A DNA stretch of 64,000 bases from an uncultured archaeon (GTDB lineage Archaea > Nanobdellota > Nanobdellia > Woesearchaeales > UBA9642): NCBI GenBank assembly GCA_963777125.1, contig CAVZPN010000048.1:1-64000 (forward strand). Reading direction: 5' to 3'. A program made the position numbers and the translations under genes. Position 1 is the first letter of the stretch; every line of letters starts with the position of its first letter. The notes beneath the pieces were generated by a model. The model did not search any database. It was given only the letters and a program-made list of their open reading frames with translations, and had not been told where the DNA came from. Below, one piece after another: positions 2,280-62,150 of this stretch.

Positions 2280-2317
2280 AAAAAACATAAAATAATTTAG
2301 TCAATATTCAATAGTAT

Positions 2318-2698
2318 TTATTTCTTACCTAAACCAACTGCATATATTCCGTATTCTTCAATTCTCTCTTTGTATCCTGGTAAACTATGATATAATGCTA
2401 CGGCTTCATCTGTTGAATTTAATTCTGGAAGTACTCTACTTAATCCTTCATAAAATATCATTTCATCAACAGAATCATATTTTCTATTATATAGAGCAGT
2501 AAATTCTAATGGTTTAATACTTTCTATTGGTTTAAAATCTAATCCTACAACTCTTATAGAAATATTATCTCCTTCAACTATCTTATGATAATGTTTTTCA
2601 GGTTTTCTCATGTCAGGAACTCTTCCTTCAACTTCTTTACCCTTATCTTTTATTTTATCATAATTTTCTTTAAATATATCAAATACCCAATCTGCCAT
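2318..2698 (-). CDS. Hypothetical protein
   Basis: Intact 126-aa ORF, purine-rich coding strand typical of this window. Confidence 0.4.
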   Translation of the reverse strand: MADWVFDIFKENYDKIKDKGKEVEGRVPDMRKPEKHYHKIVEGDNISIRVVGLDFKPIESIKPLEFTALYNRKYDSVDEMIFYEGLSRVLPELNSTDEAVALYHSLPGYKERIEEYGIYAVGLGKK

Positions 2699-2910
2699 TT
2701 TTTCACACCCCTCACCCCAATTATAAGAGACTAAAAAATATAATTACAAAATTAATATATTTAAGTTTCAATACTTCAAAATTTTGTAATCTATTTAAAT
2801 TTTTCCAGTATAGAGTATTAAACGTAATAAATATAACAACCAATATCGTTAGTTACTGTAAAGTGATAAAAATAGTAAAGTATTTAAATATTTAAAGTAT
2901 TACTAAAAGT

Positions 2911-4440: not shown

Positions 4441-4500
4441 AATAACTTATTCAAGAAAAATTAAAAATAATAAAAATATATTCAATAATATCAGTGACGA

Positions 4501-5238
4501 TTAATCATTCTCGATTCTTGGTGCTAGAATAAATACCATTTGTATTTTATCTAATTCCTTGTATTCAAGTTTCAATGGATAATCCTTATTGAATTGTATT
4601 GATACAACGCTACTTATTTTTGAACCTTGAATCATTTTCTTTAAATATTCAATTGAATACTTTGACTTCATTTTTTCTTGTGATTCAATTATTACACCAT
4701 CACTTGAAACTATATCAACAGTTGCTTTTCCAGTATCACCATTTGCACTGACAATAAATTTCTTATCTTCAGATTGGAACATTACTGATTCAGCAACAAT
4801 TTCAACATCTTCAATTGCATCATTTAACATACTTGAAGGACATTTAATTAATGTCTTAAATTTCAAATCTGGTTCTTTGTGATCTTTTTCTTGTTGATCA
4901 ATTAATGGCAAGTAGAATGTTCTAACAGTTGAACCTGTTAAGATTAATTTTAACTTATTTTCTGATAATTCGAGTGTTAAAGTATCATTGCCCTTAATTC
5001 TTCTTAATACTTGTTTTAAATTATTAAGATTAATTGCAATTTCGCTTTCTTCTTTAATACTATATTCGATAAATGCAGAATTTAATAATTTAAATATTAC
5101 CATCGCAACATTTGCCGGATCCATAGCAATCATTTCAATGCCATTTTTTCCAATCTTGAATTTTGCTTCTGTAACTAAATCAGAAATTATTGTTATTGGT
5201 TCTTTTATTAGTTTTGTTTCAGCTAATACTAATTTCAT
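4501..5238 (-). CDS. pcn: DNA polymerase sliding clamp PCNA
   Basis: 245 aa; archaeal PCNA-like N-terminus (MKLV..AE.KLIKE..TIISDLVTEAKFKI...GIEM.AMDPANVAMV) and two-domain length. Confidence 0.8.
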   Translation of the reverse strand: MKLVLAETKLIKEPITIISDLVTEAKFKIGKNGIEMIAMDPANVAMVIFKLLNSAFIEYSIKEESEIAINLNNLKQVLRRIKGNDTLTLELSENKLKLILTGSTVRTFYLPLIDQQEKDHKEPDLKFKTLIKCPSSMLNDAIEDVEIVAESVMFQSEDKKFIVSANGDTGKATVDIVSSDGVIIESQEKMKSKYSIEYLKKMIQGSKISSVVSIQFNKDYPLKLEYKELDKIQMVFILAPRIEND

Positions 5239-5328
5239 ATGTAACGCCCCCGAAAATGTAAGTTATAAGAATATAAACACTTATTACTTTAAAAATTTGA
5301 TTGTAAAAACAGTAGAATATTTATCTAA

Positions 5329-6018
5329 TTATTTCCTAAATTCATTAGGTAAGAATAATTTTGGCGCTCCTGGAACAATATGATGTTTTGTACATCTAGC
5401 TTCATAAGATAAATCACTTTTAACACTTTTTTTAACTCCCATCTTCTCAACCTTATGTATAATATCCGTATAAGGTGCCGGATCACCCTTAATAAATCGT
5501 TGTGTACGCGTAGCACGCATACCACAACCATAAACTTCTCCAGAAGCATTTTTTTCAGTATACTGACATATAGCATATAATGGAGTAACAACATCAGCAC
5601 GAAGAATAAAATAAGGCATCACACTGTAGGGTTCACCTCTAAAATCTAAATTAAGACCTGTTAATATGACGTTCATTTTATCATCTAATAGTTGATTAAT
5701 TACAGGTATTAATTTTTCATCAAAAAATTGAGCCTCATCAATTGCAACAACCTTAACCTTAGTATCAAGATGTTTAAATAAATCCCAAGGTGTTTCTTCA
5801 GAAAGTTCTATTGCATCTATGTACATACCGCCACCAATTCTAGAATATATTTTACCCGGAGTTCTTTCATCCTTGATTGGTTTAAACGCCTCATATCTAG
5901 AATTTGGAACATAATTAACTGAAGAAATACGTGATATTAACTTATCACCTTTACCAGAATTCATAGGACCATAATATACTTCAAGTATTCCTGGATTAAT
6001 ATTATATAACAAGTCCAT
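5329..6018 (-). CDS. tdk: Thymidine kinase
   Basis: P-loop GPMNSGKG, VVAIDEAQFF, LTGLNLDFRGEP, C-terminal Cys/His zinc region. Confidence 0.85.
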   Translation of the reverse strand: MDLLYNINPGILEVYYGPMNSGKGDKLISRISSVNYVPNSRYEAFKPIKDERTPGKIYSRIGGGMYIDAIELSEETPWDLFKHLDTKVKVVAIDEAQFFDEKLIPVINQLLDDKMNVILTGLNLDFRGEPYSVMPYFILRADVVTPLYAICQYTEKNASGEVYGCGMRATRTQRFIKGDPAPYTDIIHKVEKMGVKKSVKSDLSYEARCTKHHIVPGAPKLFLPNEFRK

Positions 6019-31705: not shown

Positions 31706-32211
31706 TGAAACTAAATCTCACAAAAGAAGAAATAAAAGAAACAGTATTACATTTTGGAGAAACAACTATATTACGAAATAATTATGAAAATAATATCCCT
31801 AATGTAGTAGTCGAAATATTCTTCGAAAAATACAACCATATAAAAATATATGGTCCGAGTTTAGAAACTTTCGGACAAATTTCTACTCACACATTTAAAA
31901 ACTTTTTAGAAAGAAACGGAACAATAGAAGCATTACTTACAGAAGATTTAGAATCTAATAAAAATTCACTTATTTCCAAATTCTATCTAGAATATCAAAA
32001 TAATATACAAATAAAATTCATTCAAGATAACAAATTAAAAATTTCAGAAGAAGATGAATATAGATCATATCTAATAATAGGAGATGAAAAAGGCTTTATT
32101 TTTAAACAACATCATAAAAAAGATTCTTCTAAAAGTTATATTTTTGATTCTTTAAACAACGCAAAACAAACCAATACATTAAATGAAATATTTAATCGTT
32201 TAAAAAATTAG
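31705..32211 (+). CDS. Hypothetical protein, paralogue 1, translationally coupled to gyrA
   Basis: Start ATG overlaps the gyrA stop by 1 nt (TAATG); about 40% identical to the next ORF. Confidence 0.5.
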   Translation: MKLNLTKEEIKETVLHFGETTILRNNYENNIPNVVVEIFFEKYNHIKIYGPSLETFGQISTHTFKNFLERNGTIEALLTEDLESNKNSLISKFYLEYQNNIQIKFIQDNKLKISEEDEYRSYLIIGDEKGFIFKQHHKKDSSKSYIFDSLNNAKQTNTLNEIFNRLKN

Positions 32212-32328
32212 AATAATATTAAAAAAATAAAATTCTAAAGGAATAACTTTATCTAAAAATCAGCCTTATATTATAATTACTTCTCAAAAATGAGAACATT
32301 TAAATATTCTTAAGAAAGCTAGAATAAT

Positions 32329-32940
32329 ATGACTATGATATCTAAAGAAGACTTCGCAAGAAAAACAATAACAGAATGGGCAAGATTAAAAGAACCATGT
32401 ACGTATAAACCAACTTGCGAACACAATGTGCCAAGCATATTCTTAGAAACCTTTTTTAATAATTATAATAATATAAAATTATACGGTTCGAGCCTAGAAG
32501 CTTTTGGAAATCTTCCAACTCAAACATTTAAAGACTTTTTAGATAGAAATGGAACACTTGAATTACTACTTACAGAAAAATTAGAACCGCATTCTATTGA
32601 AACTCCTTCACTTATTTCTAAATTTTTAACAAAATATGAGAAAAACATAACTGTAAACCATGTAGATTTACAAATAATTAAAAATAAAATAGTAGAAAAA
32701 CAGAATCAGAAAAAAAGCAGTTTAATTGAAGAAATAAAAGCACTTGATACACCTAAATTTGAAGAAGAACCAGAAGAAGACTATGAGGAGTATTTTATAA
32801 CCGCAGATGATTCAGCATTTATTTTCAAAGAACATCATAAATATAACCCTAAAAGTTACTTTTTTTATTCTTTTAACAATATAGAAGAAGCTGCTAAATT
32901 AAATAACGCATTTGAGTATTTTAAAACTTTGAAAAATTAA
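32329..32940 (+). CDS. Hypothetical protein, paralogue 2 of the gyrA-coupled gene
   Basis: Shared blocks F(F/L)E.(F/Y)N.IK.YG.SLE.FG ... F.(D/N)FL.RNGT.E.LLTE.LE and C-terminal IFK.HHK...KSY.F.S.NN. Confidence 0.5.
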   Translation: MTMISKEDFARKTITEWARLKEPCTYKPTCEHNVPSIFLETFFNNYNNIKLYGSSLEAFGNLPTQTFKDFLDRNGTLELLLTEKLEPHSIETPSLISKFLTKYEKNITVNHVDLQIIKNKIVEKQNQKKSSLIEEIKALDTPKFEEEPEEDYEEYFITADDSAFIFKEHHKYNPKSYFFYSFNNIEEAAKLNNAFEYFKTLKN

Positions 32941-42908: not shown

Positions 42909-42994
42909 ATATTTAAGATAAAAAAATTTAGAATAAAAAGGTTATGAATAAGAATAAAACAAATAATTATTAAGATAAATATTAAAAAGATCAT

Positions 42995-43182
42995 AAAAAT
43001 TCGCTGAAAGTGTCCTACTCCACACTAAAGTGCGAAGTTTGATCGAACACTTTCTTAATCGCGAATCCCCAAAAAATGCGTAGCATTTTTGGGCCCAAGA
43101 AAAGCACGGCTTTTCTGTGGGTTTTAGGATACAAAGAAAACCAAAGGTTTTCTTGTACAAAAAATTTATAATTTTTTTGTAC
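42995..43182. repeat. Structured multi-hairpin repeat element, copy A
   Basis: Shares AAAAAYTCGC ... CTTAATCGCGARTT frame and downstream hairpin modules with copies B and C. Confidence 0.7.
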
Positions 43183-43302
43183 TAAAAACGACAATTCATC
43201 TCCATATTAAAATATTGAGTTTTATTGTCGTTTTTATTATAAAACAAATGTATAGAAAATTAAATTAAAAATTTATTAAAAAAATAAAGAATAAAACGTA
43301 AC

Positions 43303-43527
43303 TTACTTACGTTTTGATTTAGGAGCCATAGCTTTTTCAATTTTTAGCTCTTCTTCTTCAATTCTTTTTGCTTCTAACTCGATATGATGAGTCATTTTCT
43401 CAATATTTTCATCCATTCTAGCAATTCTTCTTTCAAGTAATACTAGAACTCTTAAAGAATAAACTATTGCTGCTAAAGTTCCAATAATTATTGCTAATAT
43501 AACGTTATCCAAAGCCATTTTATACAC
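43303..43527 (-). CDS. Small TM plus coiled-coil protein
   Basis: N-terminal hydrophobic helix then charged heptads. Confidence 0.4.
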   Translation of the reverse strand: MYKMALDNVILAIIIGTLAAIVYSLRVLVLLERRIARMDENIEKMTHHIELEAKRIEEEELKIEKAMAPKSKRK

Positions 43528-43648
43528 CTCTATTTTTACAAACTCTGACTATGATAGAAATACATCCGCATAAGATGTTTATATATTTTGTGTTTATATG
43601 TACGAACTCGACCAAATTCATATAATTATATCATCTATTTAAAAGTAA

Positions 43649-44044
43649 TTATCCAGTGATTAATTGTTCAAAACTTAATCCTTTTCTTTTAGCAATAGGA
43701 ATATCTATAGAATAACTTTTTTCAGTAATTTCTAAATCTTCAATATTTAAAAAAAACCAGTCCATCCTATCAAACTTTACAGCAATCCAAGCTTCTGCGC
43801 CAAATTTATTTGCAAAAAAAACTAATTCATCAACTTCTTTTTTAGTCAAATATTTTTTAGTATCACAAGTTGACTTACATTCAATTGCAAGTCTTCGAAG
43901 ATTATTGCCTGCAAGAATATCAGGACTTGGATATTTCATACTACCAGATCCTGCACTTCGAATAGCAACCCACCCATTATCATTAAACTTATGGATTAAA
44001 TCCCTCTCAGCATTTGATCCTTTGGCTTTTTTGTTTAGTAACAT
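43649..44044 (-). CDS. hjc: Holliday junction resolvase Hjc
   Basis: KGSNAERDLIHKF...PDILAG...LAIECKST catalytic E-D-E-K arrangement; 131 aa. Confidence 0.8.
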   Translation of the reverse strand: MLLNKKAKGSNAERDLIHKFNDNGWVAIRSAGSGSMKYPSPDILAGNNLRRLAIECKSTCDTKKYLTKKEVDELVFFANKFGAEAWIAVKFDRMDWFFLNIEDLEITEKSYSIDIPIAKRKGLSFEQLITG

Positions 44045-44063
44045 AGTAGAATAGTAAATTTAG

Positions 44064-44717
44064 GTGTTTATAATTTTTGTTATAAAAGAAAAATTTAAAT
44101 ACAGACGACATACATACAGACACATGTTTGAATTAGGAGAATATATGGGAGAAGGAGCATTTGCTACCTTTTTTAGAATAAGAGGATATCCTAAATTAGG
44201 AGTAAAGATATCTAGACTTGAACGTCCAAATATGGCTAAAAAAATTCTACAAGAGGAACTAAACAAAGCTAAAATACTGATGGAATTAAAACTACCTGTT
44301 CCTAAATACGTTGAAGTAATTCAAATACAAGTACCGGAATATTTTATCAAAACATTAGATAGAGGAATTACAAGAAATAATCCTGATTCAATAAATAATG
44401 ATGTCTGGATAAAAGAAAGTAGAGAAGAAATAATAACAACTCTAAAAAAAACCGTAGTATATGGCTTGCTAATGGAATATGTAGAACCTGATTTGAGTCT
44501 AATAAGTCAAAAAAGATTAGAGTATATATATAAAAAAGAAGTAGCCAAAATAGAAAAATACGGAATAAAAATAATAGATTCAGGTTTACATCATAATGTA
44601 TTATGGAGTAAAAGTCAAGCAAAAATGTATTTTATAGATGTAGAAGCATGGGATTTATCAGAAATGCATAATCCTGTAACAGAAAAGAAATCGTGGTGGA
44701 GAAAACTATTTGAATAA
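44064..44717 (+). CDS. Atypical protein-kinase-like protein (Bud32/RIO-like fold?)
   Basis: GEGAFATFF glycine loop, conserved Lys (LGVKI), IDSGLHHNVLW, YFIDVEAWD; weak. Confidence 0.3.
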   Translation: MFIIFVIKEKFKYRRHTYRHMFELGEYMGEGAFATFFRIRGYPKLGVKISRLERPNMAKKILQEELNKAKILMELKLPVPKYVEVIQIQVPEYFIKTLDRGITRNNPDSINNDVWIKESREEIITTLKKTVVYGLLMEYVEPDLSLISQKRLEYIYKKEVAKIEKYGIKIIDSGLHHNVLWSKSQAKMYFIDVEAWDLSEMHNPVTEKKSWWRKLFE

Positions 44718-44757
44718 AACAAAAAAATAATAAAAAAATAGAGTCTATTAATCAGAA

Positions 44758-44835
44758 TTACTTCTTCTTAACAATTTTCTTTACTGGCTTTTTTTCGACA
44801 GTCTTTTTTGAGCCACATCCGCAACTTCCACACAT
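44758..44835 (-). CDS. Possible micro-protein MCGSCGCGSKKTVEKKPVKKIVKKK (25 aa)
   Basis: Manual translation; AGGTGA Shine-Dalgarno-like motif 5-10 nt upstream; not in the ORF track. Confidence 0.25.
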   Translation of the reverse strand: MCGSCGCGSKKTVEKKPVKKIVKKK

Positions 44836-44939
44836 GATATCACCTCGCACAAATTATATGCTTTAATACATTAAGTAATAAAAACAGATTTTAAAAAATA
44901 GAATTAAATAAAAACGTAATTAAAAAAAATAAAACATAA

Positions 44940-45233
44940 TTAGATTATGTCTTCTTCTGCTAAAACAACAAAGTCACCGACAGCAATTACTGCTGAAAAT
45001 GGAACTAAAATGTTACCTTCCTTAGTTTTTTCTAACTCTAATTTTTCAATATAGGAAGTAGGATTTATTAATATAATATGTATTAATTCTCCTGTTCTTG
45101 CTTCAAATACTATATCTCCAACTTCACCGAATCTTTTTCCTGATTTAGATATTACAGTTTTTCCAATTAATTGTTTAGAAAATTTCTTATCGTCAGTCAT
45201 TCTTGGTTCTGATTTATTCATTACGTCTGCCAT
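44940..45233 (-). CDS. PRC-barrel domain protein
   Basis: LIGKTVISKSGKRFGEVGDIVFE pattern. Confidence 0.5.
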   Translation of the reverse strand: MADVMNKSEPRMTDDKKFSKQLIGKTVISKSGKRFGEVGDIVFEARTGELIHIILINPTSYIEKLELEKTKEGNILVPFSAVIAVGDFVVLAEEDII

Positions 45234-45429
45234 TACACATCACCTTAAGTATAAATTTTATCAATATTAGAGAATAAGAAAGCACGAATATATAAAGTTT
45301 ACTATTGAGAAGGACTAGGTTAAAATCATGGATGAGAGCATTTTAACATTTAGAACCTAAAAATAGATATATCTCTATAAAAATCGATAATTATTTAAAA
45401 CACCATTCCTATAATCTAGTAAGAAGAGG

Positions 45430-46617
45430 TTGAATAGTTTGAATAATAGTCAAAATAATAATAATTTGCATCATAAAATAATACATAATTTGGTTCTAAA
45501 CCACAAATCATATGCTAACAAGAATAATATTCAATCTAAAAAACCTGCTCTAAATTACAATAATTTAATAAAACAACATTTAGGAATTTTAAAAGAATTA
45601 CAATATAATTCAGGATTATTTGCAGCCTCGAGTAAATCTGTGAATACTGGATATGATAAATCTTGGCTTCGAGATAATTTTTATGAATGCCTTGCATTTG
45701 AAGTAATCGGTGATTGGGATACTGTTGAAAAAACCTATGATGCAGTTCTTCAAATATTTCTCAAACACGAATATAAAATTGATTACGCAATACAATCAAA
45801 ACCCGAGCATAAACATGAATATATACATGCAAGATTTCATCCTGAAACATTTGACGAATTCTGGGAAGATTGGGGTAACAAACAAAACGATAGTATAGGC
45901 GCAATACTCTTTAGAATTGGAGAACTTGAACATCATCATCAAAGATATATCTTAAAAAATGAAAATTATATAAGAATAGTAAATAAACTAGTTCAATACT
46001 TAGAAGCCATACGTTATTGGTGTGATGAGGATAATGGTATGTGGGAAGAAAATGAAGAAGTTCATGCATCAAGTGTTGGAGCATGTGTTGCTGGCCTAAA
46101 AAGCATTAAAAGATTAACAAAAATAGAAGTACCTGATGAATTAATACGCAAGGGAGAAGAAACATTAAACAAATTATTACCTCGAGAATCTAAAACTAAA
46201 TTTGTAGATTTATCTTTATTATCATTAATATATCCTTACAACATTGTTACACCAAAACAAAGAGCAGAAATACTCGAAAATGTTGAATATCTATTACTTC
46301 GAGAAAGAGGAGTAATAAGATACAAAAATGACCATTACTACAACAAAAATCCTGACGGATATAGTGAAGAAGCAGAATGGACATTTGGTCTTAGTTGGCT
46401 TGCAATAATATATGAAAAATTAGGAAATATTCCTAAAGCTAAAGAATTTATAGACAGAGCATTAAAAGCTACAAGCAACAAAGGTGTTCCTGAGTTATAT
46501 TTTAGTAATTCTAAAAAACATAATGAGAATAACCCTTTAGGCTGGAGCGAATCATTATTCATAGTAGCATTACATGATATGAATAAAAAATGTATACATC
46601 AAAATATTAAGAGTTGA
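45430..46617 (+). CDS. GH15-like (glucoamylase/trehalase-type alpha/alpha-6 barrel) glycoside hydrolase
   Basis: YDKSWLRDNFY (W-x-RD) and GMWEEN (general-acid WEE motif as in glucoamylases). Confidence 0.5.
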   Translation: MNSLNNSQNNNNLHHKIIHNLVLNHKSYANKNNIQSKKPALNYNNLIKQHLGILKELQYNSGLFAASSKSVNTGYDKSWLRDNFYECLAFEVIGDWDTVEKTYDAVLQIFLKHEYKIDYAIQSKPEHKHEYIHARFHPETFDEFWEDWGNKQNDSIGAILFRIGELEHHHQRYILKNENYIRIVNKLVQYLEAIRYWCDEDNGMWEENEEVHASSVGACVAGLKSIKRLTKIEVPDELIRKGEETLNKLLPRESKTKFVDLSLLSLIYPYNIVTPKQRAEILENVEYLLLRERGVIRYKNDHYYNKNPDGYSEEAEWTFGLSWLAIIYEKLGNIPKAKEFIDRALKATSNKGVPELYFSNSKKHNENNPLGWSESLFIVALHDMNKKCIHQNIKS

Positions 46618-46621
46618 AAAT

Positions 46622-47953
46622 TTGAATAATAAAAATACTAAAACATCTAAGGCGTGGGTCATTTCTGTTGATATGGGATATGGTCATCAAAGGGCAGCAT
46701 ATCCTCTCAAAGATATTGCTTATGAAAGAATAATAACAGCCAATAGTGATGAAATTATATCTGAAAAAGAACGTAATATCTGGGAACAAACAAGAATATT
46801 ATATGAAGCCGTATCGAGATTAAAAACCATTCCAGTTATAGGACAACAATTATTTAACATTTATGATCAAATACAAAAAATATCTCCATTTTTTCCATTT
46901 AGAGATTTATCAAAACCTAATTTTAGTACACTAAGAGTTAAAAAAATCATTGATGAGGGATTTGGTAAAAGTCTTGTAGAGTATACCTCTAAACAAAATA
47001 TTCCGATAATTTCTACATATCCAATATCTGCATTAATGTTTGACTACAATAATAAAAAAGTATATCTTGTTGTTACAGATACAGACATTAATAGAGTGTG
47101 GGTCTCAAATAATCCTAAAACAAGCAATATAACATATTTTGCACCATGTAAACACGTTGTTTTAAGACTTAAACAATACGGAGTATCTGATGAAAAGATA
47201 ATTGAAACAGGTTTTCCGTTACCTAAAGAAAACATCGGTAAGAATGACGAAATAGTAAAAAAAGATCTTATGGCAAGATTAGTGAATCTTGATCCTGAAG
47301 GAATATTTTTTGAAAAATATAAAGGAATGGTTATTGATAAACTGAATTTAAAAAAGAATCAGAAATTTGATTTGGAATCATTAAAAAAATTTAAAACACA
47401 TGACCTCACTATAACATACGCTATTGGTGGTGCTGGTGCACAAAAAGAATTAGCAATTGAAATTATTAAATCATTAAGAGAAAAAATAGAATCCAAAAAA
47501 TTAATTATAAATATAGTAGTCGGAATAAAATTAGAATTAAAAATGTATTTTGAAACAGAATTAAAAAATATAGGATTAAAAGATAATATCGGAATAAATA
47601 TCAACATAATATTTGCATTCGACAAAAAAACTATTTTTGAAAATACTAATAAAATTTTACGAACCACAGATATATTATGGACAAAACCTAGCGAAATGTC
47701 ATTTTACACCGCTCTTGGAATACCAATAATTATTGCCCCACCAATTGGAGCTCATGAACACTTTAATAAAGAATGGTTACAACACATCGGTAGCGGATTT
47801 GTTCAAGAAGATCCTTTATTTACTAAAGATTGGATTTATTATTGGATACAAGATGGAAGACTTGCTGATGCTGCAATACAAGGATTTATAGATGCTCCAA
47901 GGCATGGAACATATAATATTGAACAATACTTGTCTAAAAAAGGTAATATTTAA
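46622..47953 (+). CDS. GT28-family glycosyltransferase (MGDG-synthase-like)
   Basis: ISVDMGYGHQRAAYPL (G-x-G-H-x-x-AA N-terminal signature); 443 aa; immediately downstream of the GH15-like gene. Confidence 0.5.
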   Translation: MNNKNTKTSKAWVISVDMGYGHQRAAYPLKDIAYERIITANSDEIISEKERNIWEQTRILYEAVSRLKTIPVIGQQLFNIYDQIQKISPFFPFRDLSKPNFSTLRVKKIIDEGFGKSLVEYTSKQNIPIISTYPISALMFDYNNKKVYLVVTDTDINRVWVSNNPKTSNITYFAPCKHVVLRLKQYGVSDEKIIETGFPLPKENIGKNDEIVKKDLMARLVNLDPEGIFFEKYKGMVIDKLNLKKNQKFDLESLKKFKTHDLTITYAIGGAGAQKELAIEIIKSLREKIESKKLIINIVVGIKLELKMYFETELKNIGLKDNIGININIIFAFDKKTIFENTNKILRTTDILWTKPSEMSFYTALGIPIIIAPPIGAHEHFNKEWLQHIGSGFVQEDPLFTKDWIYYWIQDGRLADAAIQGFIDAPRHGTYNIEQYLSKKGNI

Positions 47954-48000
47954 AAAATACCATTGATTAAAAGCATAAAAGAACACATAATTAAAGAACA

Positions 48001-48687
48001 ATGATAAAAAAATCACATAAAAAAAGAACATCGAATAAGAAAAATAGCGTAACACGAAAATTAGATGAAGTTCTAAAAGTTGAAAATAAGTTATTACAAG
48101 TTGAGAAAAACATATCAAGAAAAGAAGATAATTTAGCAAAAGAAGAGAAAAAAATAGAATTAGAGGAATCTAGAATAGAAACTGATGAAAACAATATGAA
48201 AGATGTTTCTAGCATTCTTAAAAAAGAAGAATCCGACTTAGAAAGACTTGAAAAAATAGAAACTGAAATAAAAAATGAAGTTGGGGAACATCCTCTTGCT
48301 AAAGTAACATTAAAAGATATCACTAAAGGATTAATTGGTGCATTTATTGGACTTTCTGTTCATTATACTTTTACTTATGGTGTTGAAATTGCCCATAGTT
48401 TAACAATGACACGAGCCACAATAATGTTCCCATTAACGTTTTTAGTAGGATTATTATTTATATATGCAACTGGCTTTAGAAAAGTTGAAGATAAAAGAAT
48501 ATTAATATATATGCCTCTAAGAGTAATAGTATTATTTATGTGTTCATTAGCAATGTCAATACTAGTACTATACTTCTTTTATCCATTATTCGGACATAAT
48601 TTTGAAGAATCATATAAAATGGTAGCAGCAGTAATGCTTTCAGCAATAGTTGGTGCATGTACGGCAGATTTACTGGGAAAGGAATAA
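48001..48687 (+). CDS. Coiled-coil protein with C-terminal multi-TM domain
   Basis: Charged N-terminal half, 3-4 hydrophobic helices. Confidence 0.4.
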   Translation: MIKKSHKKRTSNKKNSVTRKLDEVLKVENKLLQVEKNISRKEDNLAKEEKKIELEESRIETDENNMKDVSSILKKEESDLERLEKIETEIKNEVGEHPLAKVTLKDITKGLIGAFIGLSVHYTFTYGVEIAHSLTMTRATIMFPLTFLVGLLFIYATGFRKVEDKRILIYMPLRVIVLFMCSLAMSILVLYFFYPLFGHNFEESYKMVAAVMLSAIVGACTADLLGKE

Positions 48688-49160
48688 AAATGTATATAAT
48701 AAATATTGATAAAGAAATACAAAAAGATAAGAGAATAGAAGAAATATTTAGAAATATTGAATCAGAATTAATTAACGAAGAAGTTACAGACTCAATACTT
48801 CAAAGCAAAAAAACATTATTAACATGTTTAAAAAATATTGGACTTCTAAGAGACATGTATACTGCGCAACAACAAGAATTTTATAATTATAGACCGGTTT
48901 TTATCAAAGAAGGAGCTAAAAAAGAATCAGAAAGATTATATGGTGACTTAACTAAAATGATTATAGATATTAATGAATATGAAAAAATATTGCATTATAT
49001 AATCAACTTAATTGAAGATTCAAAAAGTAAACTTGAAGATCAGAAAGCTAAAATAAAAAAAGGATTAGATGATATAAGTAAAGCTTATGAAGCATTTATC
49101 GAAACAAATAAAGATGCAATAATACAGCTAGAACAAATAAAAGTTCTATCTAAACAATAA
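48657..49160 (+). CDS. Hypothetical coiled-coil protein
   Basis: Intact ORF. Confidence 0.35.
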   Translation: MYGRFTGKGIKMYIINIDKEIQKDKRIEEIFRNIESELINEEVTDSILQSKKTLLTCLKNIGLLRDMYTAQQQEFYNYRPVFIKEGAKKESERLYGDLTKMIIDINEYEKILHYIINLIEDSKSKLEDQKAKIKKGLDDISKAYEAFIETNKDAIIQLEQIKVLSKQ

Positions 49161-49165
49161 GTCAA

Positions 49166-50206
49166 ATGAACCTTAATGATTATTCTTACGAACTTCCAGA
49201 AAAATTAATAGCACAAAAGCCACATTTTCCAAAAGATGAATGCAAATTATTAATTCTTGGTAACAAAATAGAACACACTAAATTCTATAATACTATTGAT
49301 CATTTAAAAAAGGGAGATATATTGGTATTAAATAATACTAAAGTTAGTCATGCTAAAATATATGGTGAAAAAGAAACGGGAAGTAATGCAGAAGTAATAC
49401 TGATAAAAAATATTAAAAATAATATTTATGAAGCAAAAATTAAAACAAAAAATCCCCTCATAGGAACTAAAATTATTATCAATACTAAAAATAAACACCA
49501 TAAAATTAATACAAGCAACAATAACCATAATAAGGAGTACATAGAAATTATTGACAAAAAGAATATTGATACCTTTATTGTGAAATTGAGTTCTAAAGAG
49601 ATTTTATCTTTGGCGATACTACCGACGCCACCATATATTAAAAGAAAATTAAAGGATTCCGAATATCAAACAATATTTTCTAAAAAAGTAGGATCATTAG
49701 CGGCACCTACTGCAGGTCTTCATTTTACAAAAAAGTTATTAGAAAAAATCAAACGACTAGGAGTAGAAATTGTATATATAACATTACATGTAAGTTATGG
49801 TACTTTTAAAAATATTGATGATATTGATAATTATGTTATGGATCCTGAATACTACGAAATAACAAAAGATTCAGCAAATAAAATAAATAATCGCAAAGGT
49901 CGATTAATTGTATGCGGCACAACAACCCTAAAAGCACTTGAAACAGCATCAGAAAAAGGTAAAATTATTTCAGGAAATAACTGGTCAACATTATTTATTT
50001 ACCCACCATACAAATTTAAATCAAAAACAGACATACTAATAACAAATTTTCACTTACCAAAATCTACATTATTACTTTTAACATGTGCTTTTGGAGAAAA
50101 GGAAAGGATACTAAACGCATACAATATAGCTGTTAAAAAGAGATATAAATTCTATAGCCTAGGAGACGCTATGATGATATATTTTAATCCTTCCATTAAT
50201 GCATGA
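49166..50206 (+). CDS. queA: S-adenosylmethionine:tRNA ribosyltransferase-isomerase QueA
   Basis: YSYELPEKLIAQKP, AAPTAGLHFT, ITLHVSYGTF, CGTTTLKALE, NFHLPKSTL, YSLGDAMMIY; essentially collinear with E. coli QueA. Confidence 0.85.
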   Translation: MNLNDYSYELPEKLIAQKPHFPKDECKLLILGNKIEHTKFYNTIDHLKKGDILVLNNTKVSHAKIYGEKETGSNAEVILIKNIKNNIYEAKIKTKNPLIGTKIIINTKNKHHKINTSNNNHNKEYIEIIDKKNIDTFIVKLSSKEILSLAILPTPPYIKRKLKDSEYQTIFSKKVGSLAAPTAGLHFTKKLLEKIKRLGVEIVYITLHVSYGTFKNIDDIDNYVMDPEYYEITKDSANKINNRKGRLIVCGTTTLKALETASEKGKIISGNNWSTLFIYPPYKFKSKTDILITNFHLPKSTLLLLTCAFGEKERILNAYNIAVKKRYKFYSLGDAMMIYFNPSINA

Positions 50207-50295
50207 TAAAGTTTATAAATATGTTTTTCGACTATAATTAAATAATGAATAGCAACAACTAACTTGTTATTTATTTTACGGTTAAGAGGCGAGTA

Positions 50296-51219
50296 ATGGT
50301 TTTAGAAAACATCATCAATCCAACATGGGCAGAAAATAAACCTTCAATGATGATACTTGTTGGCGCTATATATACTACTCTTGCAATATTTTTAAGTTTC
50401 TATATCTTTGAAGCATATAGCAGTGTATTTATGGTTTTTTTAACAACACTTGCAATACTGCCTATATTTTATAAAATAATTAAAACTGAAGAACAAAAAG
50501 ATTTAACAGATATGGAAGAAAAAATCTTATTGAAAGAACATTCAAAGGCATTAAAAGCATTCATGTATCTTTTTATTGGCGCAACACTTTGTTTCTCACT
50601 ATGGTATATAGTATTACCTACAGATATGACTAGTATCTTATTTCACTCACAATCAAGCACCATTAGTACAATAAATGCTCGTGTTACAGACCAAATAGAC
50701 ATTACTGGAAATGCTACAAGCCATGCATCAATATTTACTAGAATATTTTTTAATAATTTTAAAGTAATGTTATTTTGTATACTATTTTCATTTATATACG
50801 GTGCTGGAGCAATATTCATACTAATATGGAATGCATCTATAGTCGGAACGGCAATAGGTTCTTTTGTTCGAGCAAGTATTGATACACTTATAACTAGTTC
50901 GTGTGGCGCAACTACTGGCACAACATTTTGCGCAGTCTCATCAGGAATACTCAGATACACAATCCATGGAATTCCAGAAATACTTGCATATTTTGTCGCA
51001 GCTCTTGCAGGAGGCATAATTAGTATCGCAGTTATTAATCAAGAATTTAATTCTAGAAAATTTGAACACATCCTTCTAGATAGTGCCAATCTATTAATGG
51101 TTGCTATAGCAATATTATTTATTGCAGCATTACTTGAAGTATTTATAACGCCAGCATTAAGTTTTGATAAAAACTTCTATAGCTCATGTTTAGGATTAAT
51201 GTCATGCACACTAGCATAA
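50296..51219 (+). CDS. SpoIIM/DUF95-family membrane protein
   Basis: FFNNFKVM...GAGAIFILIWNASIVG...IHGIPEILAYFVAALAGG pattern. Confidence 0.5.
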   Translation: MVLENIINPTWAENKPSMMILVGAIYTTLAIFLSFYIFEAYSSVFMVFLTTLAILPIFYKIIKTEEQKDLTDMEEKILLKEHSKALKAFMYLFIGATLCFSLWYIVLPTDMTSILFHSQSSTISTINARVTDQIDITGNATSHASIFTRIFFNNFKVMLFCILFSFIYGAGAIFILIWNASIVGTAIGSFVRASIDTLITSSCGATTGTTFCAVSSGILRYTIHGIPEILAYFVAALAGGIISIAVINQEFNSRKFEHILLDSANLLMVAIAILFIAALLEVFITPALSFDKNFYSSCLGLMSCTLA

Positions 51220-51260
51220 TTAAACCACATAATACTACATAAACATACTACATAAATAAC

Positions 51261-51437
51261 AAAAACTCGCTGCTCGAGGCTATCCTCGGGCTAAAGCCCG
51301 AAGTATTACGCCTCTCGCTTAATCGCGAGTTCCACAAAAATCAAAGATTTGTGGGACCAAGAAATCTTCGATTTCTTTGGTTTTGGGATTAAAAATTTCG
51401 GCCTCAAGACCAAGGTATTAGACCACGAAATTTTTAA
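51261..51437. repeat. Structured multi-hairpin repeat element, copy B
   Basis: See copy A; carries compensatory ACTCGC/GCGAGT closing stem. Confidence 0.7.
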
Positions 51438-51465
51438 TAAATAGAATACTATTCTAACAAATAAT

Positions 51466-52689
51466 TTATTCTTTGGCGTATGCTAAGAAATGCATTGTAT
51501 CATAAACTTTTAATGCACGCATTTTATCAAGAGTTTTTCTATCCATCAAAGGCACTAATTCAGACTCGATAATATCAATAGTATGATTGGATACTAATTC
51601 ATCTTTAGAATGATATTTTTGTATAACTTGCTTAATAGTGTTTCTAACGCGAGTCGCAGAAATTGGCAAACAATCGGATTTTGCAGTCGAACGAACTACG
51701 GAGAGTAGGTTATAATCTCCTTCGCCAAATAATTGTTTTGTCCAATCATTTCCAGCAATTACTGAATTAAATGTAGGACATAAAGATACTGTCTTTGGAG
51801 CAAAACAAGCATTAGCATCAATATCTTTTATTGGAATAGTATAAAATTGGTCTGCACCAATACCATTATTAATCAAAGCATGCCTGATAATATCTATACG
51901 TTGACCCGCTGTAAATGGATCTGAATCAGTATGATCTTGCTGTGCTGAACCTATTGCAATAACTATTTGATCTGAATTTTGTAATCCTAATCGGATATTA
52001 GAAAAATGTCCATTATTATCTTCATAAACTCCTGTAAATGGTTGAAATCCACCTAGAAATAGTGTTCGTTTAGCAATATTTTTTGTAATATTAAAATCTG
52101 AATTTTTACGGTTATATATAGCATTTATTCTATTAGATAAATTACTTTCAAACAGATAATCGATAGCACTTTGAGGAATATATATTTTTAATTCATCCAT
52201 AGCAGCACTATTACCCTTCAAATATTGTGCAAGTAAATTAAAATATTCTTTTTCTGGCTTTTGTTCATCTATGGTTTGTATATTATAATGATAATTTTTC
52301 TTAAATGATTCAAACATTGTGGCATTCTTAAAATTTCTAGTATATACGGTGTGCCATTTTGGCGTCAACATTAAAATTTCCGATACCCATCTAGTTGCAT
52401 CAGGAGCGTTTTCTATAGGTATAAGAATATATTTATTAGGAGATATTCCTTCTGATTTTAATACATGATCAGTTAATTCTATTCTTTCTCCGGCAGTCAT
52501 TATTTCTCCTATTTCATGAGAGTATCCTGCATTACCTATTCCTATGACTACTTCATCATTTTCTTCCAAAATTAATTTTATTAAATCAACATCTTTTTTT
52601 GTTGTTGGTTGAAATTTTTCTATTATAAATCCTCGTTTAGGATTTAAATTATAATTATTTTTTATGTAATTAGAATCCATATGTATCAC
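51466..52689 (-). CDS. Tandem nucleotidyltransferase (NadM/NMNAT-like) domain protein, HxGH motifs degenerate
   Basis: Two repeats RGFIIEKFQP...VVIGIGNA...TAGERIEL and TLFLGGFQPF...IVIAIGSA...TAGQRIDI. Confidence 0.5.
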   Translation of the reverse strand: MIHMDSNYIKNNYNLNPKRGFIIEKFQPTTKKDVDLIKLILEENDEVVIGIGNAGYSHEIGEIMTAGERIELTDHVLKSEGISPNKYILIPIENAPDATRWVSEILMLTPKWHTVYTRNFKNATMFESFKKNYHYNIQTIDEQKPEKEYFNLLAQYLKGNSAAMDELKIYIPQSAIDYLFESNLSNRINAIYNRKNSDFNITKNIAKRTLFLGGFQPFTGVYEDNNGHFSNIRLGLQNSDQIVIAIGSAQQDHTDSDPFTAGQRIDIIRHALINNGIGADQFYTIPIKDIDANACFAPKTVSLCPTFNSVIAGNDWTKQLFGEGDYNLLSVVRSTAKSDCLPISATRVRNTIKQVIQKYHSKDELVSNHTIDIIESELVPLMDRKTLDKMRALKVYDTMHFLAYAKE

Positions 52690-52695
52690 GTCAAT

Positions 52696-53385
52696 TTACA
52701 TTAATTTAACATATCCTGCTTTTAATTCAAATATTTCTCCACGCATCATCATATCGCTAATAAAATCTTCACAATTAGAAATACCAGATAGTTTCAATAC
52801 ATCCTCAATATTTGCACCATTACCATTATCTAATGCTTTTATTAATTGAGCAATTTTATCTTTAGAACCTAAACTACCATGAGTTTCAACAATTTCCGGC
52901 TCAAGAGCCATTTTCTTTTCTATTTTTGGAAAATCTTCTGAAGTTCTAACTTTTTGAATTAAAGATAATTCTTTTTTACGATATGCAACCCATGACGGAG
53001 ATATTTTTTTAATTAATTCAATTGTTAAATATATTTGGCTATTAAAATCTCTAGGTCTTCCAACCACTAATACAACATCACCTACAACAATAGGTAACAT
53101 TTGTTCTGTTTTATCAAATATTCTACCACTAATTTGTCCTGTACCATCATCTAATACAACGCTAGTATCATCTTTTGAAACAACAACAGCCATAAGATTA
53201 ACTCTCGAAAAATCACCGTATTCAGTCATTAAATAACTAGATTCCCATCCTTGTTTTTTAATAAATACTCCATTAGTCAAAGTAATTATACTACATTTGT
53301 ATGCGGTTTGTCTTTTGATTTCTTCTGCCATTTTAATCAACTTAAATATTTTAATCAAATTATATTCTACTAATAAATCCTGCAC
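52696..53385 (-). CDS. OB-fold plus C-terminal winged-helix protein (RPA32/Stn1-like architecture), immediately downstream of mcm
   Basis: VNLMAVVVSK..VVLDDGTGQISGRIF..GDVVLVVGRP OB-like strands; overlaps the mcm 3' end. Confidence 0.4.
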   Translation of the reverse strand: MQDLLVEYNLIKIFKLIKMAEEIKRQTAYKCSIITLTNGVFIKKQGWESSYLMTEYGDFSRVNLMAVVVSKDDTSVVLDDGTGQISGRIFDKTEQMLPIVVGDVVLVVGRPRDFNSQIYLTIELIKKISPSWVAYRKKELSLIQKVRTSEDFPKIEKKMALEPEIVETHGSLGSKDKIAQLIKALDNGNGANIEDVLKLSGISNCEDFISDMMMRGEIFELKAGYVKLM

Positions 53386-55375
53386 GAGGAGTAAATATAA
53401 CTCCTTCTTTTTTCAACACATCAATTATGTCTTCAGCCTTTTCTGGATCAAGACCTCTCTCTTTAACTTTTAATAATATATCATCAACTGGGATTTGTTT
53501 ACCTATCTGTCCTTCAAGCTCCTTAATTATATCTTTAACAACAGAAATATTGCTTCTTTGAGATGCAGAAACTCCTGTTGTTATTCTATCAATATCTATT
53601 TTACCAGTCTCAGGATCTAAACCAATTTGCATTAAACAAAAGTGGACTAATTCTATTGCACGTCTTGCATCACTTTTCAATACTTTTGTTGCAAGTCTAA
53701 CTCGAGCGCTAGCTTCACTAAGTCTAATTAATGCTTCAAGCTGTCTTGCGGAAATTGGAATTGCTTTAAATGCGCCTTCATCATCCCCAGTACTTCTCAT
53801 TTTTACATAATATTCTTTTATTTCTTCTAATGCTTCATCAGTTAATACGGGATTAATATTTTGTTTTGCATAAGCAATATATTTTTTAATAAAATCGGTT
53901 CGTAATTCTGCTTCTCCACCACTAGATTTTTGATGTAATTTTAATATAAAATTTGCAGTTCTCTCATCTTTAATTTTATTTGGAAGATCTCTTATCGGAA
54001 ATATTAAATCAAATCTATTAATTAATGTTGATGGCAATTCTATTTGTTTTGCAAGCATTTCATAAGGATCGAATCGTCCAAATTTAGGATTTGCAGCAGC
54101 AAGTACCGTTGTTTCTGCTCTTAATGTTGCAGAAATATTTGCTTTGTTAATACTAATAGTCTGCTGTTCAAGAGCTTCGTGCATTGCGCTAGTATCTTCT
54201 TTAGTCATCTTATCTAATTCATCTATGCAACATATTCCTCTATTAGTTAGAACTAATGCTCCAGCTTCTAGCGCATATCCTCTTAAGAAATCATCTTTAA
54301 CAACTGTTGCAGTTAAACCCGCTGCACTTGCACCTTTTCCTGATACGAATCTCGATTTTGGTGCAACAATACTAATTCTTTTAAGCATTTGACTTTTACC
54401 TGATCCTGGATCACCAATTAATAATACGTGAATATCTCCTCTATTAATTGAACCATCATCTTTAACTTTTCGAACGCCACCGAATAATTGTAAAACTAAT
54501 GCTTCTTTTACTTTGTCGTGACCATAAATAGATGGAGCAATACTTCCTGTTAATTTTTTATATATTTTTGGATCTTCAGATAAATCTCTTATTTCTTTAA
54601 TATCTTCAGCTTTAATATTGAGTTCACTAAAATCTTCAGCAACAGATTCAGTATGATTAGCTTCAATCATTAAATCAAATCTAGTTAATTTTCCGCCATC
54701 TTTTGCAAGTATTGGAACTTCTTTTAATATTCCTGTAATAATGTTTTTACTACCAGGATTTGTTTTCTTTTCAGATAATGGACTTACTAAATCTCCTTTT
54801 AAGAAAATATCTAATCTTTTTGGTTGCTCAGATCCTTCAATATCTTCAGGCGCTTCTTCTAAAACAATTTTCTGAGCATCAATCATTTCTTTATTCATTA
54901 ATCTAAATCTTCCTTTACGACCGCAACCACATCTTGTCGGTTCATGAAATTTTGTATCAAGTTGTAGTACTGTCATAGTATTACCACATGCAGGACATTC
55001 AAATCGCGCGCTCGTAACTTGAGGTCTTACAGGAGATTTTTGTCTTATTATACCTGAAAGCTGTATTAATTTAGATAAATGTATTGCTCTAATATCTCTA
55101 ATCATAATTTCTTGCGATTTTGGTAAATTCTTAAATCTTAATTTAAAATTTTTAACATCAGGAAAATCAAATTGTTCAATAGCGATTTCGCAAGCTCTCA
55201 AAACATCTTCTGGAGTTTCTAAAAGTTGTTCAGCTAATTCAATATTAAATCTGCTTAAATCACTAAAATTAATTATTAAGAATTTTTCACCTTTAGACAC
55301 TGCGGCACGTAATTGTTCACCATAGACTACTTCAAAGAATTCGTGGAACTTTTCTATCTGCTCCGTAATTTCCAT
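53360..55375 (-). CDS. mcm: MCM replicative helicase
   Basis: C4 zinc finger (CPACG..CGCG), Walker A GDPGSGKSQ, Walker B CIDELDKM, arginine finger SARQ, C-terminal wH. Confidence 0.9.
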   Translation of the reverse strand: MEITEQIEKFHEFFEVVYGEQLRAAVSKGEKFLIINFSDLSRFNIELAEQLLETPEDVLRACEIAIEQFDFPDVKNFKLRFKNLPKSQEIMIRDIRAIHLSKLIQLSGIIRQKSPVRPQVTSARFECPACGNTMTVLQLDTKFHEPTRCGCGRKGRFRLMNKEMIDAQKIVLEEAPEDIEGSEQPKRLDIFLKGDLVSPLSEKKTNPGSKNIITGILKEVPILAKDGGKLTRFDLMIEANHTESVAEDFSELNIKAEDIKEIRDLSEDPKIYKKLTGSIAPSIYGHDKVKEALVLQLFGGVRKVKDDGSINRGDIHVLLIGDPGSGKSQMLKRISIVAPKSRFVSGKGASAAGLTATVVKDDFLRGYALEAGALVLTNRGICCIDELDKMTKEDTSAMHEALEQQTISINKANISATLRAETTVLAAANPKFGRFDPYEMLAKQIELPSTLINRFDLIFPIRDLPNKIKDERTANFILKLHQKSSGGEAELRTDFIKKYIAYAKQNINPVLTDEALEEIKEYYVKMRSTGDDEGAFKAIPISARQLEALIRLSEASARVRLATKVLKSDARRAIELVHFCLMQIGLDPETGKIDIDRITTGVSASQRSNISVVKDIIKELEGQIGKQIPVDDILLKVKERGLDPEKAEDIIDVLKKEGVIFTPRAGFISRI

Positions 55376-55492
55376 GATGTTATTATCAAAAGTTGCTAGT
55401 AACTTAAAATTGCATAATATTCAACAATGAATATCCCATAATTAAGTCAAATTAACTTTTGTACCCCCGTAATGTATATAACTTATAATAAC

Positions 55493-55633
55493 AAAAATTC
55501 GCTACTCAGGACTATTCACAATCTAAGGTTGTGGTATTGCGCCTTTGCTTAATCGCGAATTTTTGGGATTAAAAATTTCGGCCCAAAGGTCGAAATATTA
55601 AACTCCGACAAAATTTCTACCGAAATTTTTAAT
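55493..55633. repeat. Structured multi-hairpin repeat element, copy C (shorter)
   Basis: AAAAATTCGC ... GCGAATTTTT perfect 10-bp closing stem; 13-bp TTAAAAATTTCGG/CCGAAATTTTTAA stem. Confidence 0.7.
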
Positions 55634-55743
55634 AATATAATGTATAAAAGTTAAAATATATAAAAAAATATCGGATAAATTTTCGCAAATCTTCCGGAAA
55701 TTAGTTAAATTAATTAGTAATTATTTAGTATAATTTCTAATTT

Positions 55744-56331
55744 TTATTGTAATTTTTTTAATATTACAATTAATTTATCTAAAGCTTGTATTGCTTCTGC
55801 TTCACTCTTAGTTCCAGTACATACAACCTTACCATTACTAAATAATAAGAATGTAGCTTTTGCTTCAATTAACTTATATACTAAGCCTGGAAATTGTTCT
55901 GGTTCGTATTCAGTATTTGGAAGTTTCATTGCTAAACTGTTTAAGTTTAATGCCATACCAATACTTCCTGATGCAACCATATTTTGAACAGTAATCTTTG
56001 GCTTTATTGTTATTTTAATTCCAATCTTTTGTAAGCTTTCAATTATTTTTTGTATTGATTCTTCAACTTTTTGTAAACTTCGCGCGCCAGTACATACAAT
56101 TTTTCCTGAACTAAATATTAACGCAGATGTTTTTGGTTCTTTTATTCTTATAACTAAACCTGGAAATTGTTCTGGATTATATTCAGTATTACTTAATGTG
56201 GCAGCCATCTTCTCTAATGGAATGGTATGTTCAAGTGATGAACTTACAACAATATTTACAATCTGTAAACTTTTTTCAGTATTAGTTTCAACAACACTAC
56301 TCTTTGATTTCTTTACGCTTTTCTTAGCCAT
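55744..56331 (-). CDS. tbp: TATA-box binding protein
   Basis: Two direct repeats (...EYNPEQFPGLVIRI...SGKIVCTGARS / ...EYEPEQFPGLVYKL...NGKVVCTGTKS). Confidence 0.9.
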   Translation of the reverse strand: MAKKSVKKSKSSVVETNTEKSLQIVNIVVSSSLEHTIPLEKMAATLSNTEYNPEQFPGLVIRIKEPKTSALIFSSGKIVCTGARSLQKVEESIQKIIESLQKIGIKITIKPKITVQNMVASGSIGMALNLNSLAMKLPNTEYEPEQFPGLVYKLIEAKATFLLFSNGKVVCTGTKSEAEAIQALDKLIVILKKLQ

Positions 56332-61901: not shown

Positions 61902-62150
61902 GTGAATAAAATGGCTGAAGTAGTAGCAAAAGTCGGTGTAAAGAAGGAAAAGGGAATGTTATACTTTGTAGATAAACAAGGAGACATCTCTTGCGCAACA
62001 ATGGCTCGTGGCGGAAAAGCTAAAAAGGGCACAAAGAAAGTAGCAAAAGTCGGTGTTAAAAAACAATCCGGTTTCTTGTATTTCGTAGACAAGAAAGGTA
62101 ACGTTTCAAGAGCAAAAATGGCTCGTGGCGGCCGAAAGAAGAAGAAGTAA
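61902..62150 (+). CDS. Small basic protein made of two tandem 36-aa repeats
   Basis: VAKVGVKK(E/Q)xG(M/F)LYFVDK(Q/K)G(D/N)(I/V)SxAxMARGG(K/R) twice, ending RKKKK. Confidence 0.45.
   Translation: MNKMAEVVAKVGVKKEKGMLYFVDKQGDISCATMARGGKAKKGTKKVAKVGVKKQSGFLYFVDKKGNVSRAKMARGGRKKKK

Follow-up and report, generated by a model that had tools for sequence, protein, structure and literature searches.

Three multi-hairpin elements in a woesearchaeal contig are probably old copies of a MITE-like mobile repeat of DPANN archaea

[quoted passage not shown] Among such small bacterial and archaeal repeats, including M. jannaschii elements with coding potential, there are open frames that fuse to genes, and the Rickettsia palindromic elements (RPEs) are found in spacers and also as in-frame fusions to conserved protein genes, which survive the fusion (PMC2229807, PMC10969869). 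A census of MITEs placed a woesearchaeal genome among the MITE-densest archaea, the families themselves not being described (PMC11602168). Here, we analyzed a window of 64,000 nucleotides from an uncultured archaeon of the Woesearchaeales (contig CAVZPN010000048.1, assembly GCA_963777125.1), in which a first-pass annotation had reported three multi-hairpin elements with covarying stems, designated below as copies A, B, and C. We consider it likely, with a probability of roughly 0.8, that these elements represent old and diverged copies of a MITE-like, non-autonomous mobile DNA repeat with a patchy distribution among DPANN archaea of the Nanoarchaeia/Woesearchaeales type. The kind of element is already known, as MITE-like, hairpin-forming interspersed repeats with coding-compatible frames, whereas this family is new; its distinctive traits are a modular build, an orientation locked to the tetranucleotide ATAA, and in-frame gene insertions in DPANN hosts.

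The related Nanoarchaeia metagenome-assembled genome (MAG) SMAG_U8006 (GCA_035291205.1) contained ~38 near-identical copies in unrelated contexts, many of them exactly at contig ends, which we attribute to the effect of a high-copy repeat on short-read assembly. In this genome, the gatC-gatA-gatB cluster is flanked and interrupted by three copies of the same orientation (locus L043, positions 1868–5520; also loci L132 and L133), whereas the corresponding region of a relative (locus L136, GCA_053532775.1, GatA 79% identical) had none in 11.5 kb. The end of gatB thereby provided an empty site: L136 reads GCGATAAAGTGA, whereas SMAG_U8006 reads GAGATAA, then the element (C...CA), then ATAAAGTAA. 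Over a longer stretch, ...ATGCTGGCGATAAAGTGATTT in L136 corresponds in SMAG_U8006 to ...ATGCTGGAGATAA, the element (CAAAAACTCGC...CAGTTTTCA), and ATAAAGTAAATT. The empty site has a single ATAA and the occupied site has ATAA on both sides of the element, and the C that follows the left ATAA is therefore part of the element. Because the gatB site places this C inside the element, a native AATAAC near the stop codon in the relative compared at the PepA site is probably a coincidence; that relative (70%) was too diverged for the comparison. Independent assemblies of the SMAG population retained all three gatCAB copies, and no insertion polymorphism between assemblies of this population was found at the four sites compared.

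Every fully flanked copy in SMAG_U8006 (16/16) had ATAA(C) on its left and (A)ATAA on its right, and never the complement TTAT. The ATAAC/AATAA flanks were also present in the diverged loci L051, L090, and L117 and in window copies B and C; copy A likewise has ATAA at both ends if that copy is extended as described below. Including one ATAA, the unit measured 132 bp in 28 of the 29 SMAG_U8006 copies measured, and this compact form (128 + 4 bp) has a stop-free frame on each strand. The first-pass annotation had stated that clear terminal inverted repeats with target-site duplications (TSDs) would indicate a plain MITE. The observations largely point this way, with a possible TSD in the form of ATAA at both ends and a single ATAA at the empty site, although the inverted repeat is short and imperfect: (C/T)AAAAACT(C/G)GC matched at ~10/14 positions in SMAG_U8006 and at ~11/13 positions, with one gap, in copy C. 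An AT-rich target containing TA and the occurrence of modular variants, as in BOX, are shared with described MITE-like repeats. The family differs from them in that its terminal inverted repeat (~8–11 bp) is imperfect and not family-wide, its target is non-palindromic with fixed orientation, and no parent insertion sequence (IS) is known.

Some copies in SMAG_U8006 were located inside genes. In gatC, a copy has inserted in frame after the native start and ahead of the conserved body of the protein, which reads MAQTNQQKN-[44 residues]-KIIERETLLKV compared with MAKTNQIIEKETLLKV in the relative. The N- and C-terminal halves of a DUF763 protein were found on two contig ends, covering profile positions 1–161 and 166–319, and would be joined in frame through the element if the two ends are contiguous; a PMT_2 membrane protein and a helix-turn-helix (HTH) protein likewise read through a copy. 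The gatB frame runs 13 codons into a copy and stops in its CTAAAG loop, acquiring an element-encoded tail of 12 residues. The survival of such insertions is explained by the 132-bp form with its stop-free frame on each strand, a property of the relative and not of the window, where no copy lies inside a gene and the corresponding frames carry stops. In the annotation of GCA_035291205.1, copies appear as "hypothetical proteins" of 51–73 aa (P0241–P0244), which are likely annotation artifacts of the element's open frame; a census of proteins with the element's peptide returned just five short open reading frames (ORFs).

These properties are closest to those of the RPEs. Both are hairpin-forming repeats of ~100–150 bp in a reduced, AT-rich genome, and no transposase is known for either; the DPANN unit, whose frame is open, adds 132 bp and was found within gatC, DUF763, and PMT_2. 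Unlike RPEs, the DPANN element has an archaeal host, consists of at least two independent local hairpin modules rather than one long pairing between 5' and 3' ends, and is flanked by a constant, orientation-coupled ATAA, and its in-frame copies were seen in SMAG_U8006 but not in the window. A sequence relation between the two is not expected across domains, and the DPANN element is accordingly regarded as an analog of the RPEs and not as a member of them.

The three elements of the window lie where the first-pass annotation had placed them, all on the plus strand and between genes. Their components are as follows, where R1 denotes the covariance model of module 1 and fold z compares the folding with that of dinucleotide shuffles.

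42993..43242, plus strand: copy A, whole; belongs to the L044 subfamily (86% module-1 identity); end previously placed at 43182, with a putative extension to ATAA at 43239–43242
42995..43070, plus strand: copy A, module 1, with P1, P2 (GAAAGTG/CACTTTC), P3 with a CTAAAG loop, and the conserved CTTAATCGCGA; R1 63.1 bits; fold z −3.0
43067..43121, plus strand: copy A, two optional small hairpins, CCCCAAAAAATGC..GCATTTTTGGG and CCCAAGAAAAGC..GCTTTTCTGTGGG; fold z −3.6
43120..43182, plus strand: copy A, GGTTTTAGGAT linker and two AT-rich hairpins; fold z −5.3
43184..43235, plus strand: A5-stem...stem-T5 hairpin (AAAAACGACAAT...ATTGTCGTTTTT) adjoining copy A, then ATAA at 43239–43242; fold z −6.8; weak R1 match, 17 bits
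51256..51440, plus strand: copy B, whole; ATAA at 51256–51259 and 51437–51440; module 1 85% identical to L020 and L037
51261..51334, plus strand: copy B, module 1; R1 91.5 bits; fold z −4.1
51332..51381, plus strand: copy B, two optional small hairpins; fold z −3.3
51389..51438, plus strand: copy B, module 2 (TTAAAAATTTCG...CGAAATTTTTAA); fold z −3.7
55488..55635, plus strand: copy C, whole; short form without the small hairpins; ATAA at 55488–55491 and 55632–55635; in the spacer between the genes for TATA-binding protein (TBP) and MCM
55493..55564, plus strand: copy C, module 1; R1 72.1 bits; fold z −1.75
55568..55633, plus strand: copy C, module 2 (ATTAAAAATTTCGG...CCGAAATTTTTAAT); fold z −4.5

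Scanning the window with R1 (filters off) recovered exactly these three copies, with E-values of 2e-20 to 3e-13, and the next-best match scored 17 bits. The GC content of the copies (0.36–0.42) exceeded that of the window (0.28), as had been noted before. With the SMAG_U8006 copies included, lengths ranged from 132 to 250 bp, and the frames inside the copies were short and element-internal, with no transposase gene.

Module 1, of 72–76 nt and three helices, is present in every window copy. Helix P1 is the closing stem AAAAAYTCGC/GCGARTTTTT, whose Y/R position covaries perfectly (CG in seven copies, UA in six, mismatch in none); P2 contains a conserved tandem T·C/C·T mismatch; and P3 is capped by the TAAA/CTAAAG loop. 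The closing stem and the core hairpin, with its CTAAAG loop on stems of differing sequence, had both been described in the first-pass annotation and proved to be real, and P2, located between them, was absent from that description. In the alignment of the three copies, the blocks AAAAAYTCGCT, the CTAAAG loop, CTTAATCGCGA, and TTTTGGGAT are conserved, with variable sequence between them; across module 1, TCGC-T, the CTAAAG loop, TTAATC-GCGA, and the tandem mismatch are kept, whereas the stems vary and are compensated. Module 2, a second A5-stem...stem-T5 hairpin, was present in copies B and C, and the hairpin at 43184–43235 is probably the true module 2 and right end of copy A. The downstream hairpins reported earlier do form, although the small ones (CCMCAAAAA.. 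and CCAAGAAA..) are limited to copies A and B; the same pair recurs in L037. In every module, the hairpin is followed by T5 on either strand.

The folding of every module was better than that of dinucleotide shuffles (z −1.75 to −6.8), and the covariation proposed earlier was upheld. Using 13 diverse copies, the first ~75 nt, and a three-helix structure of our own, we found that 12/25 pairs had changed on both sides, with 91.7% of cells paired compared with 77.5% after shuffling and 33–48% when the partner was slid. With 23 distinct copies, distant ones included, 21/25 pairs changed on both sides and 94.8% of cells were paired in an alignment that was itself fitted to the model. Helices that are free to change while junctions, bulges, the tandem mismatch, and the loop are kept form the pattern expected of a protein that recognizes a hairpin scaffold.

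Among the three window copies, module 1 was only 51–66% identical, whereas each was 80–86% identical to a copy in another genome, the nearest being L044 for copy A, L020 and L037 for copy B, and L031 for copy C. These are subfamilies common to several genomes, as in transposon families. The nearest relatives of the window in public data are labeled Nanoarchaeia or Woesearchaeota (DPANN), and a scan by sequence pattern of one genome per species revealed true copies only in DPANN-type MAGs; matches in Polynucleobacter, Bacteroidia, Crocinitomicaceae, and Devosia contigs were chance or coding matches and were discarded. The element-bearing contigs of L031, L036, L037, and L044 are binned as "uncultured Methanosarcinales" with GC contents of 30–48%, which could be explained by mis-binning of DPANN contigs or by a wider host range of the element. 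A search for viral carriers gave no match with the strict pattern and six with the loose pattern, all of them chance matches without hairpins, and the searchable literature contained no relevant paper on the core sequence, only unrelated ones.

The distribution among the closest relatives was patchy. A set of 80 metagenome loci (711 kb), chosen for TBP sequences 72–96% identical to that of the window, was nearly empty of the element, with three weak and diverged matches besides the window's own organism. These matches retain ATAAC-A5, the CTAAAG-loop hairpin, GGTATTAC, and T5, and their closing stems are entirely different yet complementary. The TBP–MCM spacer measures ~120 nt in L047 (TBP 96% identical) and L048 (90%), compared with 369 nt in the window, where it contains copy C.

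The element inserts at ATAA in an orientation fixed relative to the tetranucleotide, leaving ATAA on both sides, as seen in SMAG_U8006. It would be mobilized in trans by an enzyme that recognizes the conserved junctions and loops on the hairpin scaffold, so that stems change only when the change is compensated. Host tolerance is explained by landing in spacers and, in the relative, by the 132-bp form, whose open frame on each strand allows in-frame gene insertions to survive. The hairpin followed by T5 on both strands might in addition terminate transcription in either direction as a side role.

Several observations weigh against a mobile, MITE-like origin. Neither a transposase nor an autonomous parent element came to light: in all element loci examined, module 1 was followed directly by module 2 and never by a gene, leaving no autonomous candidate, and the gene lists around the SMAG_U8006 loci contained no transposase. 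A tblastn search with two bacterial Y1 TnpA proteins (IS608 and IS200, manually entered query sequences) gave no match at E<1 in 1.2 Mb, a dataset estimated to cover at most about one quarter of the SMAG_U8006 genome. The window copies are diverged and give no evidence of current mobility in this genome. Exact empty sites were not obtained for the three window copies; divergence of the TBP–MCM spacers in L047 and L048 prevented the junction from being located, and the gene adjoining copy B is absent in relatives. The ATAA arrangement is equally compatible with a 4-bp TSD of a non-palindromic target and with an element that carries ATAA at its own end and inserts 3' of an ATAA. The terminal inverted repeat, besides being short and imperfect, is absent in L031. 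Finally, compensated stems across subfamilies are not predicted by plain neutral decay of a MITE and require that the hairpins be under selection or that one arm serve as a template for correcting the other. Correction of the latter kind, within a quasi-palindrome, would produce compensated stems without selection.

Near one of the SMAG_U8006 copies, at a distance of ~0.8 kb, we also observed a reverse-transcriptase fragment (RVT_1, YVDD motif; L005, positions 13–552), and no link between the two was established.

The alternative that survives best concerns the mechanism. The element could move by strand-specific transposition of single-stranded DNA through an HUH enzyme, as a derivative of IS200/IS605 (a palindrome-associated transposable element, PATE) or in the manner of repetitive extragenic palindromes and their associated tyrosine transposase (REP/RAYT), rather than as a cut-and-paste MITE of a DDE enzyme. 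Modules 1 and 2 would then be the left- and right-end hairpins, and ATAA would serve at the left end as the target, lying 5' of it, and at the right end as the cleavage site, with no true TSD. IS200/IS605 reportedly has the widest distribution of all IS families in archaea (PMC13343696).

The orientation of the element is strictly coupled to the non-palindromic ATAA in the 16 flanked copies, the terminal inverted repeat is weak or absent, and neighboring copies 1.5–9 kb apart were co-oriented in 8/8 pairs (chance ~0.004; pairs from the window, L043, L005, L012, L036, and contig DATDSP010000088.1 with L003 and L007). On these three grounds, we lean toward a strand-specific, HUH-type mechanism. 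The DPANN element further resembles PATEs and REP/REPIN elements in its hairpins near the ends, whose loops and bulges are conserved while the stems are free to vary, in a short conserved motif 5' of the hairpin, and in its asymmetric ends and co-pointing neighbors. Co-orientation could reflect replication-strand bias or local hopping; local GC skew gave no signal of the former (23 vs 17), and the lack of a link between orientation and skew gives an HUH enzyme no support. The hairpins of modules 1 and 2 differ in stem sequence within one element, in contrast to IS608, whose end hairpins are near-identical to each other. Neither a Y1 transposase, in the tblastn search described above, nor a RAYT was found in the 1.2 Mb examined, and ATAA on both sides fits a 4-bp TSD equally well. 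We therefore regard HUH-type transposition as a reasonable candidate that falls short of being probable; a DDE enzyme producing a 2–4 bp AT-rich duplication is possible as well.

On another reading, which we consider unlikely, the element is mobile in origin but hosts with very compact genomes retain it as an insulator or to terminate transcription in both directions. The stable hairpin followed directly by T5 on both strands of every module would suit such a function, as would the positions of the window copies (copy B between convergent genes, copies A and C just 3' of minus-strand genes) and the fact that several copies abut or supply stop codons. However, 7/24 copies separate genes that start divergently, a place that needs no terminator, others interrupt gatC, DUF763, and PMT_2 or separate gatA from gatB, positions at which termination would do harm, and close relatives lack the element at the same spacers. 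A general placement in 3' untranslated regions or at terminators was ruled out by the orientation and context counts, and a generic terminator scan was uninformative. The copies inside operons and genes argue that any terminator effect is not the reason why the element exists.

A more ambitious description, which combines a strand-specific mechanism and terminator activity with a mobile, MITE-like origin, would make the family an archaeal counterpart of the RPEs: a strand-specific, ATAA-targeting hairpin transposon, possibly moved by an HUH-type enzyme, that enters essential genes of reduced DPANN genomes without breaking their frame and whose A5-hairpin-T5 modules double as bidirectional terminators. 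We propose this only tentatively and consider it somewhat doubtful as a whole.

The first-pass annotation had preferred a family of small RNAs (sRNAs), that is, an sRNA or cis-regulatory RNA transcribed from one strand, with the covarying stems maintained by selection on folding. Strong covariation, significant folds, GC content above background, and T5 after each hairpin are all in keeping with such an RNA; T5 is an archaeal termination signal. In copy A, reading the minus strand as the RNA would also convert two A·C mismatches to G·U, a hint that was overruled by the balance across the family, in which the non-Watson–Crick stem cells comprised 9 G·T, 13 A·C, and 4 other pairs and favored neither strand. 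Orientation relative to genes was likewise random: among 24 copies with both neighbors called (crude ORF calling), 8 were tandem co-oriented, 6 tandem anti-oriented, 7 between divergent starts, and 3 between convergent ends. The syntenic spacers of close relatives (TBP 96% and 90%) lack the element, and ~38 near-identical copies, some of them in frame inside coding sequence, speak against an sRNA gene. No Rfam family matched at gathering and E-value thresholds, with sub-threshold chance matches only, and scans for tRNA and tmRNA revealed nothing relevant. The evidence for mobility, the context counts, and the balanced mismatches together make an sRNA gene family very unlikely; of the options listed in the first-pass annotation, the MITE is the one that the evidence favors.

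Integron attC sites were rejected because the flanking genes are housekeeping genes (MCM, TBP, Hjc, and gatCAB) in mixed orientation and the ends do not fit RYYYAAC/GTTRRRY, and ribozymes, H/ACA or C/D sRNAs, and split tRNAs, like attC, because their defining motifs are absent from the sequence.

The window is AT-rich (GC 28%), and the genes identified near the elements include the following, in addition to genes for a PD-(D/E)XK protein, a SpoIIM-like membrane protein, and a cytidylyltransferase-like protein.

43649..44044, minus strand: Hjc resolvase
53360..55375, minus strand: MCM helicase
55744..56331, minus strand: TATA-binding protein (TBP)

The cytidylyltransferase-like gene (407 aa, 51466–52689, minus strand) adjoins copy B and is missing at the syntenic position of L047 and L048, where an OB-fold gene is followed by the SpoIIM-like gene, either directly or after a different gene, which places copy B at an indel breakpoint. 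Upstream of the MCM start, the motif GGGGGTAC (window 55461–55468, minus strand; L047 2664–2671) is kept between the window and the relative with 96% TBP identity in an otherwise unalignable spacer and may be a regulatory or origin-related site. The window also contains two 168-nt direct repeats, 73% identical and 633 nt apart, across adjacent ORFs (31786–32586), and two 93-nt repeats, 74% identical and 117 nt apart (61922–62131), both unrelated to the elements.

DPANN genomes are tiny and are thought to be poor in mobile elements. The present family shows that strong covariation in a multi-copy element is insufficient to call an RNA gene, and it has practical consequences in that the element breaks assemblies at contig ends and draws "hypothetical protein" annotations. 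Its orientation-locked ATAA and compensated stems offer a tractable system in which to seek a new archaeal transposition mechanism. The rise of the repeat to dozens of copies and its in-frame positions in or near gatC, DUF763, and a glycosyltransferase gene parallel the RPEs of Rickettsia and suggest that reduced symbiont genomes, whether archaeal or bacterial, are tolerant of one type of selfish DNA.

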